Assembly: GCA_030038175.1 (NCBI GenBank)
Contig: JASHPN010000208.1
Location: 1-53,447 of the forward strand
DNA length: 53,447 nt
Reading direction: 5' to 3'
Source of the DNA: Verrucomicrobiia bacterium
GTDB taxonomy: Bacteria; Verrucomicrobiota; Verrucomicrobiia; Limisphaerales; UBA11358
The notes under the pieces are model-generated. The model saw nothing but the letters and a program-made list of their open reading frames with translations. It was not told the DNA's origin and made no database searches. Both the position numbers and the translations under genes were made by a program. Of the stretch, positions 23,583 through 31,746 are shown piece after piece (position 1 is the first letter of the stretch; each line of letters starts with the position of its first letter).

Positions 23583-26420
23583 ATGTTAATTCGCCGGGGC
23601 TTGCCCTTTGCGTGGCTCTTGCTCTGCTTTTTCCCGCTTTTCACGATGGCGGCGGCGCTTTCGGATTCGCCGTTCCTTGTGGATTCCTGGACCGTTGAGG
23701 ATGGGTTGCCCGATAGCGAAGCCGTTTCGGTCCTGCAGGCCCGGGACGGCTATCTTTGGATTGGCACCCTTCACGGACTCGTTCGCTTCGACGGAAACCA
23801 ATTTAAGGTCTTCGACGAGATGGATACTCCCGGCTTGAAGAGCGACCGCATTGTGTTCCTCTATGAAGACAGCCATACCAATCTTTGGATTGGCACCCAG
23901 TCCGCCGGGCTGGCCGTGATCCATGACGGGCAAATCAAGAGTTTCCAGGCCGAAACTTCCGCCGCCGGCGCGATCACGTGTGCCAGCGAAAATTCCGGAG
24001 ACATTTTGTTTTATTCGGATAATGGATTTGCCAATTATCACCAGGGCCACATGACCTATTACCCGGGAGTCCGGTCCCTGGAATTGTATCTCAAGGCGAT
24101 GCATCTGATTGTCCCTGCCAAAGACGGGGGCGTTTGGCGGCTGTGGAACGGGGCCATTCAGGAATGGAATGGCGATCACTGCGAAAAAAATCTCGGCGCC
24201 TGCCCGTGGGGCAATACTTTCGTCAAAGCCGTTTGCGAAGATGAAAAGGGAAACCTGATTGTGGGCACCCTCGGCAAGGGCATTTTTTGGTTTGATGCCG
24301 ATGGAAACTACCGGCATATCTCCAAAACGAACGGCTTGTCCTCGGATTTCGTTCTTTCTCTGTGCGTTGATGATGACGGAAATCTTTGGGCGGGCACGGA
24401 TGGGGCGGGTTTGGACCGCGTCAAGAGGAAAGCATTCAGCACTCTTCCCGGGCTGCGTCCCTGGCCGGTCACCTCGATCGCGCAGGACGCTTCGGGCGGC
24501 GTATGGGCGGCGTTCACTGCCGCCGGCCTGTCCTATTGGAACTCGAATGCCGTTCGCGATTTTGGCGTGGGCCAGGTGTCGGATGCCTCGGCCGTGCTGG
24601 TGGACCAAAAACAAAATGTTTGGGCAGGCACCAGCAGTGAGGGGCTCTTTCGATTTCAAACCAATCGTTTTGTGCCTGTCTTCGCCGCGCGGACTGACAT
24701 TCCCGCTCTTTTTGAAAGCCGCGACGGACGGCTTTGGGCCGGAACTCAAAACGGCCTGGGTTGCTGGGATGGCAGGAGCTGGAGACTCTACACCACCCGC
24801 GATGGTTTGTCCGGAAACGCCGTCAGCGCCATCGCCGAAGATTCCCGCGGCAACCTGTGGGTTGGAACCGAAGACAGCGGCCTGGATTACTTCGACGGCC
24901 AAAAATTCATTTCCTGTCGGGCCTCCGCCAATGGCTTGCCCGGCAACGATATTTCATGCCTGTACGTGGATCACGACGGCGTTTTATGGGTGGGCACCTC
25001 CGCTCACGGTCTCGCGCGCTTCAAGAACGGCCAATGGACTCCGTTGTCAGAACGCGACGGCCTGGCCAGCAACAGCATCGGTTACATCATCGGCGACGAC
25101 GAGGGGGATCTGTGGATCGGTTGCAATGCCGGCCTGATGCGGATTTCAAAGGAATCGCTCGCCGGTCTCGTGGAGGAAACGAACTTATTCTGCCGCGTCT
25201 ATGGAAAGGCCGACGGTATGCCGACGCGCGAATGTTCCAGCGGCTCGCAACCGGCCGCCATCCGCGCGCACGATGGCCGGCTCTGGTTTCCGACGAGCGA
25301 GGGCCTGGTGATCATAGACCCCTCGAAATTGGCGCTGAACCGCCCTCCTCCGAAGATCCTCATTGAATCTGTGCTGGTGGACGGGCAGGAGCAAAATACC
25401 AATCCATTAAATTCCGCCTGGAGCGCCAGTGTCACAGTCCCGCCCGGGGGCGAACAACTGGAAATCCATTACACCGCCCTCAATTTTTCCGCGCCGCAGG
25501 CCGTTCATTTCAAATACCGTCTGGAGGGGCATGAGAATGCCTGGACCGACGCCGGCGATGGCCGCGTGGCCCGCTATCCGGCACTGCCGCCGGGCCATTA
25601 TCAATTTCACGTTATCGCCTGCAACGAAGACGGCATCTGGAACAATGAAGGCGCCGTCCTGGCGGTAGTCGTGCAGCCCCAATTCTGGCAGACGGCCACG
25701 TTTCAGATTGTGGTCATTCTCGTTTTGCTTGGTTTGATCGTCGGTATCGTCAGGTATGTTTCGACTCAAAAATTGCATCGCCAGGTCCAGCGCCTCAAAC
25801 AACAGGAAGCGCTCGAGCGCGAACGCGCGCGGATCGCCCGCGATCTTCATGACCAGCTCGGCGCCAATCTCACGCAGGTGGCGTTGCTCGGAGAGATGGC
25901 CGAGGCGGACAAAAATCTGCCGGATGAAGTCGAAGCGCACACGCGGCAAATTTCCCAGACGGCGCGGGAAACGACGCGTTCACTCGATGAAATTGTCTGG
26001 GCGATTAATCCGTCCAATGACACGCTGGAAGGCCTGGCCAATTATGTGTGCAAATATGCGCAGGAATATTTCGCCCTCGCAAATTTGCCTTGCCGCGTGG
26101 ATTTTCCGGCGCAATTGCCCGCCGCGCCCATTCCGCCGGAAGTGCGCCACAATGTGTTTCTGGCCTTTAAGGAGGCAGTCAATAACGTGGTCAAGCACGC
26201 GCAGGCAAGCCAGGCTGGGGTTCGACTCCAATTGCAACCGGATCATTTCATTCTTCAGATCGAGGACAACGGCCGCGGCCTGGACAAAGACTTCGAAGCC
26301 AAAAACCGGAATGGCGTGCGCAATATGAAAAAGCGCATGGAGGATATTGGGGGCGATTTCTCCATTTCACCCGGCGCGAATGGCGGAACGGTTATTCAAC
26401 TGACAGTGCCGCTTAAATGA
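23583..26420 (+). CDS. Sensor histidine kinase with two-component-regulator beta-propellers, Y_Y_Y domain and HisKA_3/HATPase
   Basis: Signal peptide, repeated LW(I/V)GT propeller motifs, FKYRLEG, TM helix, RIARDLHDQLGA H-box, IEDNGRG; ATG 23583 chosen within ORF 22893..26420. Confidence 0.93.
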   Translation: MLIRRGLPFAWLLLCFFPLFTMAAALSDSPFLVDSWTVEDGLPDSEAVSVLQARDGYLWIGTLHGLVRFDGNQFKVFDEMDTPGLKSDRIVFLYEDSHTNLWIGTQSAGLAVIHDGQIKSFQAETSAAGAITCASENSGDILFYSDNGFANYHQGHMTYYPGVRSLELYLKAMHLIVPAKDGGVWRLWNGAIQEWNGDHCEKNLGACPWGNTFVKAVCEDEKGNLIVGTLGKGIFWFDADGNYRHISKTNGLSSDFVLSLCVDDDGNLWAGTDGAGLDRVKRKAFSTLPGLRPWPVTSIAQDASGGVWAAFTAAGLSYWNSNAVRDFGVGQVSDASAVLVDQKQNVWAGTSSEGLFRFQTNRFVPVFAARTDIPALFESRDGRLWAGTQNGLGCWDGRSWRLYTTRDGLSGNAVSAIAEDSRGNLWVGTEDSGLDYFDGQKFISCRASANGLPGNDISCLYVDHDGVLWVGTSAHGLARFKNGQWTPLSERDGLASNSIGYIIGDDEGDLWIGCNAGLMRISKESLAGLVEETNLFCRVYGKADGMPTRECSSGSQPAAIRAHDGRLWFPTSEGLVIIDPSKLALNRPPPKILIESVLVDGQEQNTNPLNSAWSASVTVPPGGEQLEIHYTALNFSAPQAVHFKYRLEGHENAWTDAGDGRVARYPALPPGHYQFHVIACNEDGIWNNEGAVLAVVVQPQFWQTATFQIVVILVLLGLIVGIVRYVSTQKLHRQVQRLKQQEALERERARIARDLHDQLGANLTQVALLGEMAEADKNLPDEVEAHTRQISQTARETTRSLDEIVWAINPSNDTLEGLANYVCKYAQEYFALANLPCRVDFPAQLPAAPIPPEVRHNVFLAFKEAVNNVVKHAQASQAGVRLQLQPDHFILQIEDNGRGLDKDFEAKNRNGVRNMKKRMEDIGGDFSISPGANGGTVIQLTVPLK

Positions 26421-26669: not shown

Positions 26670-27293
26670 ATGGCCACTACCGTTTCCATCGTCGAAGACA
26701 ACGAAAAGCTGCGCGGCACGCTGGCCCGGGTCCTCAATCGCGCCGAAGGCTTCCGTTGTGTCAGCCAATATCCGAGCGCGGAAGAGGCGCTCAAGGACCT
26801 GCCTTCGGTCAAACCGAACGTGGTGCTGATGGACATCAATTTGCCCGGCATCAACGGCGTCGAATGCGTCCGCCAGTTGAAAAAGAATTTGCCCGAGGTC
26901 CAGGTCATGATGCTGACCGTTTATGAGGACACGGACAATATCTTCGATGCGCTCGCCGCCGGCGCCAGCGGATACCTGCTCAAACGGACGACCGGGGCGG
27001 AACTGCTCGAAGCCATTCGCGACGTTCAGCGCGGCGGCTCGCCCATGACCGCGCATATCGCGCGCAAAGTCGTGCAATCGTTCCAAAAAAATGCTCCGGC
27101 CCAGCCCGCCGAAAACCTGTCCGAGCGCGAACAACAGGTGCTCGACCTGCTGAGCAAGGGACTGATGTACAAGGAAATCGCCGACAAACTCCAAATCAGT
27201 TACGAAACAGTTCACACCTACATCCGGCGCATCTATGAAAAGCTGCGCGTCCGCACGCGCACCGAAGCCGTCGCAAAATTTTTGAGGCAATAG
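26670..27293 (+). CDS. NarL/LuxR-family response regulator
   Basis: REC domain (IVEDN, LMDINLPG, GYLLK) plus LSEREQQVL...YKEIADKL HTH. Confidence 0.96.
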   Translation: MATTVSIVEDNEKLRGTLARVLNRAEGFRCVSQYPSAEEALKDLPSVKPNVVLMDINLPGINGVECVRQLKKNLPEVQVMMLTVYEDTDNIFDALAAGASGYLLKRTTGAELLEAIRDVQRGGSPMTAHIARKVVQSFQKNAPAQPAENLSEREQQVLDLLSKGLMYKEIADKLQISYETVHTYIRRIYEKLRVRTRTEAVAKFLRQ

Positions 27294-27496
27294 GCCTTCC
27301 GTGGCAGCGAACGTGACTTCGCTCTGGCTATTTTTCCACTGCCGGCATTCAACCGCGGGCCGCTGATGAAAATCCAAGCTCGTTTTTTCGTGAAGTATTT
27401 AGTCAGAGCCTCCTGACGCCGGCTGCCACGCAATTAAGGACGCGAGCACTTTTCTCCGTGCCTCAACGGCTAATTAGAAAACTCCTCTTCAATGCG

Positions 27497-27515
27497 GTGC
27501 GCAATAGTTGCGCAC
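27497..27515. promoter_or_regulatory. Perfect 8-3-8 palindrome, candidate operator
   Basis: GTGCGCAA-TAG-TTGCGCAC, 29 bp upstream of the promoter motif at 27545. Confidence 0.4.
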
Positions 27516-27544
27516 GCGGACGCGAAGATATTGGAATTTTTTTT

Positions 27545-27573
27545 GAACTCTTTGCCCGTGGAAATGCGTCTAA
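27545..27573 (+). promoter_or_regulatory. ECF-type promoter motif, copy 1
   Basis: GAACTC-N16-CGTCTAA; same spacing as copy 2. Confidence 0.6.
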
Positions 27574-27597
27574 ACACGGCAAAGGGGAAAATGGCAA

Positions 27598-27822
27598 ATG
27601 AAAACGCTTAAAGCAGTAGAGTTGACCGATCCGAATTTACGGGCCATGCCCAAGGGCCTGAGGCAAATGTTTTTGGTCTCGGTAAAATTTTTTACCAGAA
27701 AGGACAAGGCAACGGCTAAAGCCGAAGGGCAAAACGCCGATAAAGGTAATCCGGGAAAGACTGCCGCAAATCGGTCGCGGGCGTTTCAGTGGGATTACTG
27801 GTTGAATAGACCCGGTCAATAG
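27598..27822 (+). CDS. Small hypothetical protein, paralog A (74 aa)
   Basis: Purine-rich RBS; shares PxxRxxPKGLxQ and SRAFxWDYW with 27907..28152. Confidence 0.7.
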   Translation: MKTLKAVELTDPNLRAMPKGLRQMFLVSVKFFTRKDKATAKAEGQNADKGNPGKTAANRSRAFQWDYWLNRPGQ

Positions 27823-27849
27823 TTGGGAAAGAAATCGTAATTTTTTTTT

Positions 27850-27878
27850 GAATCCTTTTTTAGCAAGGATGCGTCTAA
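27850..27878 (+). promoter_or_regulatory. ECF-type promoter motif, copy 2
   Basis: GAATCC-N16-CGTCTAA. Confidence 0.6.
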
Positions 27879-27906
27879 CAGGATAGTTGGGGTTGGAAAG
27901 GCAAAA

Positions 27907-28152
27907 ATGTTCAAGTCAATCGTATGCACGTATCCGGACTTCCGGATGTTGCCAAAAGGTCTCAAGCAATTGCTTGTGGCCTCGGAGAATTTATTTTTCA
28001 GCGAGAGCAAGGGCGCGGCGCCAGGAACGAATGAGCGAAAAGCCGGCGGCGTCCGGTTATGGCAGGCGCCCAAGGGGCCGTTTTTTAACAGGCGCCGGGA
28101 AGAACAGCCGGCGCCGTCGCGCGCATTTCGATGGGATTATTGGTCGGAGTGA
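27907..28152 (+). CDS. Small hypothetical protein, paralog B (81 aa)
   Basis: Paralogy with 27598..27822 at both termini. Confidence 0.7.
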   Translation: MFKSIVCTYPDFRMLPKGLKQLLVASENLFFSESKGAAPGTNERKAGGVRLWQAPKGPFFNRRREEQPAPSRAFRWDYWSE

Positions 28153-28261
28153 AACACGTGGTGCGTGGTGCGTGGTGCGTCAAGTATCTGAGGTGAGAGA
28201 AGCGCGTTATTGGGCGGAATCTTGTATTTTCGCCTCTGTAACCAGAGGATGTCGCTTCTAA

Positions 28262-29701
28262 TCACTGCGCGGGCATTCCGGGAAAGCCGGGTTGGGTTGA
28301 TTTCGTCCGTACAATTCGATGAATGCTTTGAAGCCTTTGCGCAACCCGCCCGAGTTGTGGCGTCACAAATACCAGGAGGGTTTTGGCATCGGCCTCTTCA
28401 TTTCCGGCAACAGCCGACTGGATCAACAACGTTTGACCGGGATCCAGTCCGAGTGTCGCGGTAATCGCCGCCTTGGTCGTTCCGGGTCCCTGCGAAGCAT
28501 CCGCGAGCCGGTTCCATTGCGCCACCAGATCAAGACTGACCGATTTGGAATCCGGAGAAAGTGAAGCCGATACGTCCAGGGTGGTCCCAAGGTACGCGTT
28601 AGTTCCCGCGATTTTGACGGGCTGCGTCAGGGAAACCATTCCCTGGGCTGTTTTCGACAGGCCTGAAACGAACGCAATTCGCGGCTTGCCCAGAACCTTT
28701 GCCTCCGCGTTCTGTTTGAGAGCCGCCAGGATACTTGTGTATGCCGACTCGGAAAGTATGGCCGTCTTCGCATTCGCATCTGCCGGTTCTTGAGGAACAT
28801 TCAAGCTGTCCAAAAAATGGTTGGGGACCTCGACAAATTCCGTGCCAATTAAAAGCGCCTTTACCGAACGCGCCCGTCCCGGTGCAGACGCCACATCCGC
28901 CCGATGCATGTGAACTTCGTAGAGTGTGACGGTTGCCGTTGCGGCGACCAGTAGTATTGCGACACTCGTTGCCACCGCGGTCTGTATTTTGGTCCATGCC
29001 ATAATTTTCAATGCTCCTTTCATGAGGGTTAAGGTTGCTGTCGAAGCCGCCGCGCCCTTCGCCACTGCTACGGCCGAAATCGTCTTTGCCAGTCCGGCCG
29101 GCGCGGCCTGGACTGAGTTGGACGAAATGGCGCCGGCGATAATTGCGGTCGTCGAAGCCACGCCGCGCTTTGTGAAAAATTTTCGCAGTTTTTCCAACGC
29201 GCGGCCAAGGCGCTGCTGCGCGGTGTTTTCTTTGAGGCCCAAAACGCGTCCCACCTCGGCCACGCTCTTGTTCTGGAAATAACGCAACACGAGCGCATCC
29301 CGTTCGCTGCCACCCAGGGACGCCATCGCGTCTTCCAGATGCGGGGCCAATTCCGGCCAGAGAGGATCGGTGGCGGGTTCTTCGAGTGTGGATTGCATGG
29401 AGGCCTCCTGTTCGCGGCGGATCCGTCGCGCGTCCGCCCGTTGAAAATTTGCCGCGGTCAACCGCGCCGTCTGGTAAAGCCATCCGGCCAGCACCCTTTT
29501 TTGTCCAAAGCCTCCCGCCTTGCGGGCCAAAATAATGAACACCGCCTGCGTGATGTCCTGGGCGTGCTGTGGATTAGCGGTCCGGCGCAGCGCGACCGAA
29601 TGGACCAGGCCGACATACCGTTCCACCAGCGCGGCAAACGCGTCCTCGGATTGATTCCGGGTAAATTGCTCCAGCAACTCGGTGTCAGGCAAATCGGTCA
29701 T
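28262..29701 (-). CDS. ECF sigma-70 factor with TM helix and C-terminal secretin-like domain
   Basis: Sigma regions 2 and 4 ([31 protein letters not shown]), TM ATSVAILLVAATATVTLY, then secretin-like KVLGKPRI...GTTLDVSA...GQTLLI...LLVFVTPQL. Confidence 0.88.
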   Translation of the reverse strand: MTDLPDTELLEQFTRNQSEDAFAALVERYVGLVHSVALRRTANPQHAQDITQAVFIILARKAGGFGQKRVLAGWLYQTARLTAANFQRADARRIRREQEASMQSTLEEPATDPLWPELAPHLEDAMASLGGSERDALVLRYFQNKSVAEVGRVLGLKENTAQQRLGRALEKLRKFFTKRGVASTTAIIAGAISSNSVQAAPAGLAKTISAVAVAKGAAASTATLTLMKGALKIMAWTKIQTAVATSVAILLVAATATVTLYEVHMHRADVASAPGRARSVKALLIGTEFVEVPNHFLDSLNVPQEPADANAKTAILSESAYTSILAALKQNAEAKVLGKPRIAFVSGLSKTAQGMVSLTQPVKIAGTNAYLGTTLDVSASLSPDSKSVSLDLVAQWNRLADASQGPGTTKAAITATLGLDPGQTLLIQSAVAGNEEADAKTLLVFVTPQLGRVAQRLQSIHRIVRTKSTQPGFPGMPAQ

Positions 29702-29738: not shown

Positions 29739-30123
29739 ATGTATTTTTGGCGTGGTGCGTGTGGCGTGGTGCGCCAAGTATCCGGGATGAATCACGAAAT
29801 ACACAGCGCGGACAGCTTTGTCCGCCAAAAATGACGCAAGCAGGGAACACGCGGACAAAGCTGTCCGCGCTCCTCGGAGTTGGCCGCAGGACGACACACA
29901 TTTCATTTGTGTATAGGCCGTGAACGGAGTAAACGAACGACCCGACAGCATCGAAAAGCATGATTTTATTTGGTTTTTGAACGTTTTTTTACCAGGTGCG
30001 GGTGTGAACGAAGAGGAGAGGCGCAGGCAAAGGGAATGGCTGATGGAAGGTTGAAGAGGGTCAGAGCGACTGGCCGCCGGGCGTGCTGCGACTCGCTTTC
30101 AGCAGAGTCGCGCTAGTCCGTCC

Positions 30124-30288: not shown

Positions 30289-31746
30289 CTACGGCGTGAA
30301 ATCAGAGGGTGAATATGTGTGATTGATGACAATGTTTTCGTGGGTTTGCACGGACTTGACGTCGCCGGATACTGTGTGCGGGGCATTCCGCAGTTCTGGA
30401 TTCTTTTTTGCTTCCGCGTCGAGCATGGCATTCAACGCTTTCGCCGTTGTGTCATTTTCGATTTGACGGACCAAAAAATCCCGCTTGCCAATCCATATGG
30501 TTTGGGTGCGTCCGCCGCCGGATTGGGTCAGGACGTAACAATCAATGCCGCCCACGGCAGCATCCGGTTCTCGGCTGGGCGAATGCATATTAATGTTACC
30601 CCAATTCTGTTTGAAGAAAGTCCCGGGAATGCTGCCTGCGGCGCCGCCGGAAATCCCAGTTGCGCCACCTAATGAGCCTTCCATGTTCGGCTCCCGCTCC
30701 GGACTGGATTCGGAAGTCATTTTCAAAAAATTTCCGCTGCCGGCCGACCAAACCATTCCCGTTTGGACAAAGAATCCATAGTCTTGCTGCCATTCAATGC
30801 GGTAAAGATTCGGGCGCGCTAATTTGGTGGAATAAGTAATCGGCGGCACGGTTTTAGTCCCGACTGTGCCGGTTGATGTGCCCGTGTCGCTGTAGCTGGT
30901 CAGCGCAGCGTAGGCGTTGTGCAATCGCTGGAGAATTTGCCGCGCGGTGAGGCCGTCATCGTCGTTCCCTTTCGAAACGGCGACCGTTGCCACGCCCGCC
31001 GCGAGGATGATGCCGGCCGTGACGCCGAGTGCGAATTTGAGCTTTAACCAGGTCATTGTTTTCATAGTTCCTTTTACGATCGTTATTATGGTTGTGGACG
31101 CGGCAGCCCCTTTCGCCACTGCCACGGTTGAAATCGTCTTTGCCAGTCCCGCGGGCGCGGCCTGGACTGAATTGGCCGAAATGGCGCCGGCGATAATTGC
31201 AGTCGTCGAAGCCACGCCGCGTTTTGAGAAAAATTTCCGGAGCTTTTCCAGCGCCCGGCCCACGCGTTTTTTTGCCGCTTCTTCGTTCAGCCGCATCACC
31301 TGCCCAATTTCCTGCGACGTTTTGTTCTCGAAATAGCGCAGAGCAATCACGTTGCGATCGGCGTCGCCAAGCGAGGCCATGGCTTCGTCCAGCAATGGGG
31401 CGAGTTCATCCCAGGCTTCGGGCGAAGATTCATTGAGTTGCATGGCTGCCTCCTGTTCGCGCCGGGACCGGCGCATCCCGGCGCGGATTTGCGCGTTGGC
31501 CGCGTAGCGCGTCGCTTTCAGCAGCCAGCCGGACAGGATGGTGTCCGCGGACAGTCTGGCCGCCTTGCGGGCGAGGATGATAAAAACCGCCTGTGTCACA
31601 TCCTGCGCCAGATGCGGGTCACGCAATTGGCGCAGTGCCGCGGAATAAACGAGGCCGACATACCGTTCCACCAGCGCCGCAAAGGCGGTCTCCGACTGCT
31701 GCTGCGCATATTCGCGCAATAATGTGATGTCCTGCATTTCTGACAT
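30289..31746 (-). CDS. ECF sigma-70 factor with TM helix and LolA/DUF2092-like C-terminal domain
   Basis: Sigma core paralogous to 28262..29701; [20 protein letters not shown]; C-terminal LTSYSDTG...[12 protein letters not shown]...[12 protein letters not shown]. Confidence 0.88.

Follow-up and report, generated by a model that had tools for sequence, protein, structure and literature searches.

We analyzed two short open reading frames (ORFs), ORF74 and ORF81, in a 53,447-nucleotide (nt) stretch of contig JASHPN010000208.1 from a Verrucomicrobiia bacterium (assembly GCA_030038175.1; Limisphaerales, UBA11358), referred to below as the window. Judged from their sequences, both are real genes of a genuine, previously undescribed small-protein family that is restricted to a single bacterial order. 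We lean, with moderate confidence, toward a reading in which the two genes belong to a tandem-paralog family of disordered, two-motif regulators (~60-90 residues) that would be induced by a stress sigma factor and switched on together with rho.

Two paralogous genes of an undescribed family

ORF74 (27598-27822, + strand) encodes 74 amino acids, with an N-terminal block (N-block, 27598-27693), a Lys/Ala-rich linker and the tail SRAFQWDYW (27775-27801). ORF81 (27907-28152, + strand) encodes 81 amino acids and has the same plan, with the N-block MFKSIVCTYPDFRMLPKGLKQLLVASENLFFS (27907-28002), a disordered linker and the tail SRAFRWDYW (28117-28143). The two ORFs share strand and reading frame. 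Comparison by BLASTP identifies them as paralogs (E 5e-12), in which the N-block and the SRAF(Q/R)WDYW tail align while the middle is unalignable. Thus, the pair is as the initial annotation had described it, with common ends, unrelated middles and the same coordinates. ORF81 is the consensus-like paralog and ORF74 the divergent one.

We searched for relatives in sequence databases and in whole genomes. The genome that contains the window comprises 5.39 Mb in 431 contigs, and all of the genomes compared are uncultured bins. A search with ORF81 retrieved 57 proteins and a profile built from diverse members retrieved at least 333 clusters, all annotated as hypothetical. These come from bins labelled Limisphaerales, Verrucomicrobiae or Verrucomicrobiota, except one that is labelled Pseudomonadales. 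A search with ORF74 against 1.84 billion representatives gave one match, its own orthologue. At the genome level, the small gene is present in 47 of the 151 genomes of the window's own taxonomic family, in 1-3 copies each, and in 16 of 301 genomes of the order, where it occurs in six families besides the window's own. At the level of the phylum it is found in 2 of 401 genomes, which are the window's genome and one other from the same order, and in none outside the order. On these searches the protein family is confined to one verrucomicrobial order (records labelled Limisphaerales or Verrucomicrobiae).

No match to the family was found in Pfam or NCBIfam (E up to 10), PADLOC or the PDB sequences, and none of note in PHROGs. 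An Rfam scan of the region was likewise without a match, and literature searches returned nothing on these proteins. The family is therefore undescribed, as had been proposed from the window alone. An origin as remnants of a longer known family had been named as the finding that would count against this proposal. We rejected it, since the homologues are all 55-117 residues long and the longer open frames are upstream read-through. One copy (L076) is possibly frameshifted.

The window's genome holds two family copies only, ORF74 and ORF81. ORF74 occupies the position of the single small gene in related loci, and ORF81 represents an additional copy that has a promoter of its own and lacks the palindrome that precedes ORF74. 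The tandem arrangement recurs, as orthologues, in one other sample (L049).

A near-invariant N-terminal module and clade-specific tails

Alignments of the family reveal that the N-terminal 32 residues are near-invariant, following the pattern M-x-KSI(V/I)-x-TYPDF-x-x-LPKG(L/I)(K/R)-x-(M/L)LVASE-x-(L/F)FF, and that a variable stretch of 30-50 residues comes next. The C-terminal motif is conserved inside clades and differs between them. The tail SRAF-x-W(D/E)(Y/F)W is characteristic of the window's sub-clade, to which the WDYW ending is limited. The tail of another clade reads ...AKIAQF...LGRP-x-EMYAGA and that of a further clade ...GGPLSAFGYAWRN, while the commonest short form ends in ...NGYAAFSA, ...YAVLAA or ...LGVGA.

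Selection was estimated by codon-level comparison of five long-form genes. The nonsynonymous rate (dN) of the N-block is 0.01-0.10, and its synonymous rate (dS) is at least 1.2, which is saturated, save in the two closest pairs. The tail is constrained (dN/dS ~0.03-0.3) and the linker is near neutral (dN/dS 0.4-1.3). Synonymous third-position changes are directly visible in the codons of the N-block. Together with the dN/dS values, these changes indicate that conservation acts on the protein and not on an RNA or DNA element, and an RNA element in place of a protein was rejected on the same grounds. By this measure, purifying selection on the first 32 residues is extreme, and it is the two short motifs that carry the function.

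We used AlphaFold to explore the structure of the protein. With an alignment of 104 sequences, the predicted local distance difference test score (pLDDT) is 72-84 over residues 1-30 and ~50 elsewhere. Helices are predicted at residues 5-8, 10-14 (short) and 17-32, together with one helical turn over WDYW, and a shallower alignment gave the same picture. The predicted architecture is thus a small helical N-module, a disordered linker and a short terminal motif. The dN/dS values and the AlphaFold models agree in this respect with the two-motif protein with a disordered linker that the initial annotation had envisaged. ORF74 has an isoelectric point (pI) of 10.5, the family proteins have a pI of ~10, and there is no hydrophobic segment. 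From this lack of a hydrophobic segment and the basic pI we conclude that the proteins are cytoplasmic, and a membrane or secreted peptide was rejected for want of such a segment.

Several short-form members (P0016, P0018, P0025, P0029, P0037 and others) terminate in a manner that resembles the ssrA tag, with the endings ...NGYAVLAA, ...VLSAA, ...DRLAA and ...LGVGA. By analogy, this suggests a C-terminal degron. The window proteins end differently from the short forms, in WDYWSE and WLNRPGQ.

Each small gene follows an ECF-type promoter

The two genes are preceded by near-identical promoter elements of the extracytoplasmic function (ECF) sigma type. P1 (27537-27573, + strand) consists of a tract of eight T (27537-27544), the -35 element TTGAACTC and the -10 element GCGTCTAA (27566-27573), and transcription is predicted to start at ~27580. 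P2 (27841-27878, + strand) consists of nine T (27841-27849), the -35 element TTGAATCC and the same -10 element GCGTCTAA (27871-27878), and has no palindrome upstream. The -35 cores are GAAC (27545-27548) and GAAT (27850-27853), and in both promoters the CGTCTAA box (27567-27573 and 27872-27878) lies exactly 18 nt past the core. This confirms, at the exact positions, the T-tract and equally spaced GAAYYC-N16-CGTCTAA first noticed before both ORFs. The start codons follow the CGTCTAA boxes by 24 nt (ORF74) and 28 nt (ORF81). Across the 5.39-Mb genome, the pattern TGAAY-N17-GCGTCTAA has two sites only, P1 and P2.

Conservation of the promoter extends well beyond the window. Alignment of the intergenic region between regulator and ORF from 11 close loci shows conserved TTTTGAAT and GCGTC(T/C)AA boxes separated by a variable spacer, and a conserved ribosome-binding stretch, GGGG..GAAAGGCAAAAATG. 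Nearly all of ~40 distant loci have a -10 element CGTC(T/C)(A/G)A located 25-32 nt before the ATG, with a -35 element of GAAC, GAAT, GTAAC, GTATC or GTTAC and a spacer of 16-18 nt. No clear promoter box was found in three loci (L028, L045 and L047). The commonest form, written as a 7-mer plus a 5-mer, is TGAACTT-N16-TCCAA, and the general pattern is (T)TGAAY, 16-18 nt, CGTC(T/C)(A/G)A. These spacers fall inside the range of 16-18 nt reported for ECF promoters (PMC7776599).

There is no sigma-70-type promoter in 27200-28400 and no terminator on the small-gene strand in the same interval. The tRNA genes of this genome have sigma-70-like boxes, CTTGCC/TTGACA and TAnnnT, and therefore the small genes use a separate promoter class. 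A sigma28 reading (TGAACTTT-N11-GCCGTCCAA, resembling TAAAGTTT-N11-GCCGATAA) was judged less likely, as the -10 element has GTC and not GAT and the spacing in the window does not fit. Taken by its boxes and spacing, the small-gene promoter is of the sigmaE/ECF type and is conserved in nearly every relative, in line with the ECF-type assignment of the initial annotation.

Additional repeats surround the -35 element in some lineages. A GTAAC-N6-GTTAC inverted repeat overlaps the -35 in one clade, and GTAACG-TGAAC-GTAAC direct repeats lie immediately upstream of the -35 in another (loci with such clade-specific repeats are L022, L024, L026, L030, L034, L035 and L079; L019-L033, L040 and L042). 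The repeats are probably sites of further regulators that act on the small gene in each lineage.

The same promoter type precedes rho

The promoter type of the small genes recurs upstream of rho, and we regard this as the most useful new lead. In the window's genome, TTTTTGAACTTTTCCAGTCATGGGCCGTCGAA lies 62 nt before the rho start (contig C134, ~1973-2001, - strand). The pattern TGAAC-N16-CGTCCAA was scanned in nine genomes, seven from the window's family and two from another, and gave 2-3 matches per genome. All seven genomes from the window's family have both the small gene and a site 59-66 nt upstream of rho. In further genomes, 17 of 19 rho upstream regions carry a nearly identical 30 nt. 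Using TTGAAY-N16-18-CGTCNAA in eight genomes of the window's clade, clear recurrent intergenic sites were found only at rho and at the small gene. Other recurrent matches were rejected: those at pdxH (4 of the 7 window-family genomes) and trpD are antisense inside the coding gene and represent coding coincidences, and that before a gene for a tetratricopeptide repeat (TPR) lipoprotein overlaps a sigma-70-like TTGACA box.

Of the 151 family genomes, 53 have exactly one match each to a rho-specific pattern, and a reversed control never gave a match. The pattern is present in 31 of the 47 genomes that carry the small gene versus 22 of the 104 that lack it (odds ratio 7.2, Fisher p 3e-7, a value not corrected for phylogeny), and at least four of the 16 exceptions, which have the small gene and lack the rho pattern, have near-miss variants at rho. 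The rho box does not track the clade-specific -35 variants of the small gene. One sigma factor likely drives both the small-gene promoters and rho.

The sigmaE-type promoter of rho, TTGAACTTTTCCGGTCGCAGGCCGTCCAA, is deeply conserved across the family and the order (L084, L088, L089, L092, L095, L096, L101 and L105-L124). The rho protein itself has a disordered-looking N-terminal extension of ~90 residues. At L095 (G017), an ECF sigma gene of the window type is divergent to rho, ~180 nt from the shared box, an arrangement that is not conserved elsewhere. We also observed a T-tract, GAAT, 17 nt and CGTCTAA located 19-22 nt upstream of lgt, which encodes prolipoprotein diacylglyceryl transferase (contig C390, 9954-9983, + strand). 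With this promoter, lgt may join rho and the small gene as a target of the sigma factor.

Gene neighbourhood

The small genes lie between a two-component system upstream and an ECF cluster downstream and convergent, a setting already described in the initial annotation and supported by Pfam. The sensor histidine kinase (23583-26420, + strand, ~945 amino acids, likely start MLIRRGLPF) combines beta-propeller repeats (Reg_prop) with Y_Y_Y, HisKA_3 and HATPase_c domains. The LuxR/NarL-type response regulator (26670-27293, + strand, 207 amino acids) has REC and GerE domains. Between the regulator stop and P1 lies the palindrome GTGCGCAA-TAG-TTGCGCAC (27497-27515, strand not applicable).

In the window's clade, the small gene is usually found directly downstream of kinase and regulator (L001-L004, L050 and L006-L013). 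Across the loci with the pair, tblastn identities are 88-92% for the regulator and 72-83% for the C-terminus of the kinase. Regulators of at least 88% identity occur in the genomes with small ORFs of the close clade; the one additional genome that has such a regulator is incomplete. The REC-GerE regulator family is strongly expanded, with 14 copies below E 1e-60 in the window's genome and ~75-90% identical copies in 148 of the 151 family genomes. Its presence in a genome is therefore uninformative. The regions downstream of the other regulator paralogs hold nothing comparable. Long-form genes without the kinase-regulator pair are found at L005 and L053-L055.

The palindrome sequence TGCGCA-N5-TGCGCA has two sites in the genome, the one at 27497-27515 and one inside a coding gene. 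It is conserved at the same place in 11 of 11 close loci, and at L009 the two arms have changed in concert (TGTGCA...TGCACA). It has no following T-run and was not called as a terminator. From its sequence and position, the palindrome is a candidate operator of the adjacent regulator or, alternatively, a candidate hairpin that ends the regulator transcript.

Downstream, the first ECF sigma gene (28262-29701, - strand) is convergent to ORF81 and encodes a transmembrane segment and a long C-terminal extension. The second (30289-31746, - strand) likewise encodes a transmembrane segment and a long extension, with a different C-terminal domain. The region upstream of the first ECF gene looks sigma-70-like and lacks the motif, and we treat this sigma as a neighbour that is not established as part of the system. 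The WDYW-type small gene at L005 faces an orthologue of the second ECF gene in convergent orientation. At L053 (6335-6637), L054 (1575-1877) and L055 (644-946), a 100-amino-acid ORF is convergent to the small gene, also of the WDYW type, and homologous to the last ~100 residues of the second ECF protein. By homology, this ORF would represent the sensor domain of that protein, left over as a remnant or present as a free-standing copy. The sensor domain and the small gene show no co-occurrence, with the domain in 19 of 47 genomes that have the small gene versus 63 of 151 overall. Among 20 loci from distant clades, two have an ECF gene within 8 kb and one has a regulator. These counts lend no support to the supposed link with the ECF cluster next door, and neither do the sigma genes of the genome, which lack the motif (see below).

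A short repeat element also occurs near these genes. Three copies of GGTGCGT followed by CAAGTAT are found at 28160-28187, 8 nt past the ORF81 stop, and a variant lies at 29749-29790, 50-90 nt upstream of the first ECF gene, such that the pair brackets this gene. Two further copies of the element occur on contigs C59 and C72, beside iteron-like repeats and a parA-like gene.

A proposed model and its alternatives

We propose that the small protein would be induced together with rho by a single alternative sigma factor of the sigmaE kind, whose gene would lie elsewhere and would not be autoregulated through this motif. The invariant N-module would dock on a conserved cellular partner and the C-terminal motif would give a second contact or set the stability of the protein. 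In the window's clade, the gene would have been placed behind the conserved kinase/LuxR-regulator pair, and the palindrome at 27497-27515 would be the likely site through which this pair modulates P1. ORF74 would then integrate both inputs, from the sigma factor and from the two-component system, and ORF81 would receive the sigma input only.

Several observations weigh against this model. None of the ~45 sigma-70-family genes in the window's genome carries the motif upstream, and ECF sigmas usually autoregulate (PMC7826278). The distance from AAC to CGTC is 18 nt at P1 and P2 versus 16 nt at rho, and the assignment of both to one sigma is uncertain because of this difference. A scan of the genome with the promoter motif, which had been suggested as the way to define a regulon, did not deliver one. 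With the relaxed motif, 55 sites were found versus ~51 expected, which equals chance, and no wider regulon is therefore visible. The co-occurrence with the rho promoter may reflect shared ancestry only. The distance from palindrome to -35 varies by 7-9 nt in four loci, which fits a hairpin as well as an operator. Finally, within ~8 kb of the small gene the clades have no neighbouring gene family in common, and thus the neighbourhood indicates no partner.

The best placed of the alternatives, although an unlikely one, is that the small protein serves the adjacent two-component system as a feedback or connector component, in the manner of MgrB, PmrD or SafA. Here, the regulator would activate the small gene via the palindrome, and the product would tune the kinase or the regulator. 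That the highly similar pair immediately precedes the small gene at the majority of loci in the window's clade argues for this arrangement, as do the conserved palindrome between regulator stop and promoter, unique but for its coding-gene copy, and the distribution of the closest regulators, which, one incomplete genome aside, follows that of the close-clade small genes. However, outside the window's clade the gene stands alone, with a regulator within 8 kb in a single one of the 20 distant loci, and four loci (L005 and L053-L055) have the long form without the pair. ORF81 itself lacks the palindrome. Of the 151 genomes, 148 have members of the regulator family but only 47 have the small gene, and the small protein, having no hydrophobic segment, is soluble, unlike MgrB and SafA.

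We next consider a modulator of Rho-dependent termination, or of associated RNA metabolism, that is made together with Rho and either acts like Rof/YaeO or phage P4 Psu or assists the long-extension Rho of this lineage. The small gene and rho share a promoter type that recurs between genes at no other site, genomes with the small gene tend to carry the rho-type promoter, and the protein is basic and disordered with a docking module, all of which would suit such a role. Yet co-regulation is no proof of interaction, the small gene is not adjacent to rho, and the protein does not resemble Rof, Psu or any other known factor in sequence. Moreover, rho is universal, whereas the small gene is found in about a third of the family, and 22 genomes have the rho promoter and lack the small gene. 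We judge this explanation to be doubtful. The same doubt applies to a more specific form of our own model, in which a sigmaE-like sigma would have a two-member core regulon of Rho and the small protein, and the N-module would dock on Rho or RNA polymerase and retune termination under stress, with additional two-component gating in the window's clade. If true, this would represent a new lineage-specific class of termination modulator.

An anti-sigma role is improbable. A minimal soluble anti-sigma, similar to NepR or FlgM, would hold its own sigma and, in the window's clade, might be released by the phosphorylated regulator. The protein is short, disordered and furnished with a helical module for binding, an ECF-type promoter would provide negative feedback, and its neighbours in the window are a response regulator and ECF genes. 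In addition, the GerE domain of the regulator also scores on Sigma70_r4 models and resembles sigma region 4, and soluble anti-sigmas that lack a recognisable domain are known to escape searches (PMC7826278). On the other side, the small gene is never co-transcribed with a sigma gene or consistently beside one: it is convergent to the ECF gene in the window, and an ECF gene lies within 8 kb in only the two distant loci mentioned above. The protein has no match to NepR or any anti-sigma domain in Pfam or NCBIfam (E up to 10), and the regulator has the ordinary REC-GerE order, which is not PhyR-like.

The weakest rival, also raised in the initial annotation and highly improbable, is a ribosomally synthesized and post-translationally modified peptide (RiPP) precursor with the N-block as leader, a variable C-terminal core containing the aromatic WDYW and an enzyme encoded elsewhere, since, although a conserved N-terminus with a variable C-terminus fits and aromatic motifs at the C-terminus recall the Trp cross-linked peptides that radical S-adenosylmethionine (SAM) enzymes produce, there is no maturase nearby (no neighbour family recurs across clades, no inspected neighbour looks maturase-like and the sole radical-SAM gene seen adjoining looks like housekeeping MoaA) and the constrained part of the supposed core is the nine-residue tail, the linker being low-complexity (P/G/A/K/R), not Cys/Ser/Thr-rich and with a dN/dS near 1, with 1-3 copies per genome and no export or cleavage motif.

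Our favoured reading thus remains a disordered two-motif regulator that is induced by a stress sigma and switched on with rho. Hardly any small protein from the uncultured Verrucomicrobia of soil and freshwater has been characterised, and this family has an unusually clear signature, in which a near-frozen 32-residue module stands beside a freely drifting linker and the promoter class otherwise recurs conserved only at rho. The family provides a testable handle on the alternative sigma of the order and its targets, on the regulation of rho in this phylum, about which, to our knowledge, nothing is known, and on the wiring of a disordered two-motif protein to a sensor kinase. A functional link to Rho, if true, would amount to a new kind of termination control. 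Without such a link, the proteins would still be a clean new family for small-protein studies.

Comparison with known systems

We compared the family to NepR, MgrB/PmrD/SafA, Rof/YaeO and Psu, and its promoter to those of sigmaE and AlgU. NepR, from the alphaproteobacterial general stress response, is comparable in size (~60 amino acids) and in being largely disordered apart from a short helical module for binding. An ECF promoter drives its expression, and a response regulator and ECF sigma genes share its locus. However, NepR has no sequence similarity to the small-protein family. The small gene does not form an operon with a sigma gene, the regulator in the window is of REC-GerE type whereas PhyR is sigma-like-REC, and neither a sigma gene nor a regulator is found near most family members.

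MgrB, PmrD and SafA share with the window the placement of a small gene at or under a two-component system, which here includes a candidate operator between regulator and small gene. They differ in that the family protein is soluble, disordered and without homology to any of the three, that its promoter is of an alternative-sigma type, and that its association with the kinase-regulator pair is limited to one clade.

Rof/YaeO and phage P4 Psu are also small proteins, and the promoter class that the small genes have in common with rho suggests the same regulatory circle. The family has no homology to them, with no match of note in Pfam, PDB or PHROGs. The folds contrast as well: Rof adopts an Sm-like beta fold, whereas the small-protein family is predicted to be helical and disordered.

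The consensus of the sigmaE/AlgU type is GGAACTT-N16-TCAAA/TCTGA. Relative to such promoters, the spacers of P1 and P2 are 2 nt longer than that of the rho copy, the cognate sigma here would not be autoregulated from the motif, and the apparent regulon is tiny, comprising rho, the small-protein family and perhaps lgt. On the side of likeness, the family -35 has an AAC core followed by T-rich bases, the -10 is (CG)TC(T/C)(A/G)A, spacers are 16-18 nt, and the rho copy, TGAACTT-N16-TCCAA, follows the sigmaE/AlgU consensus nearly letter for letter.

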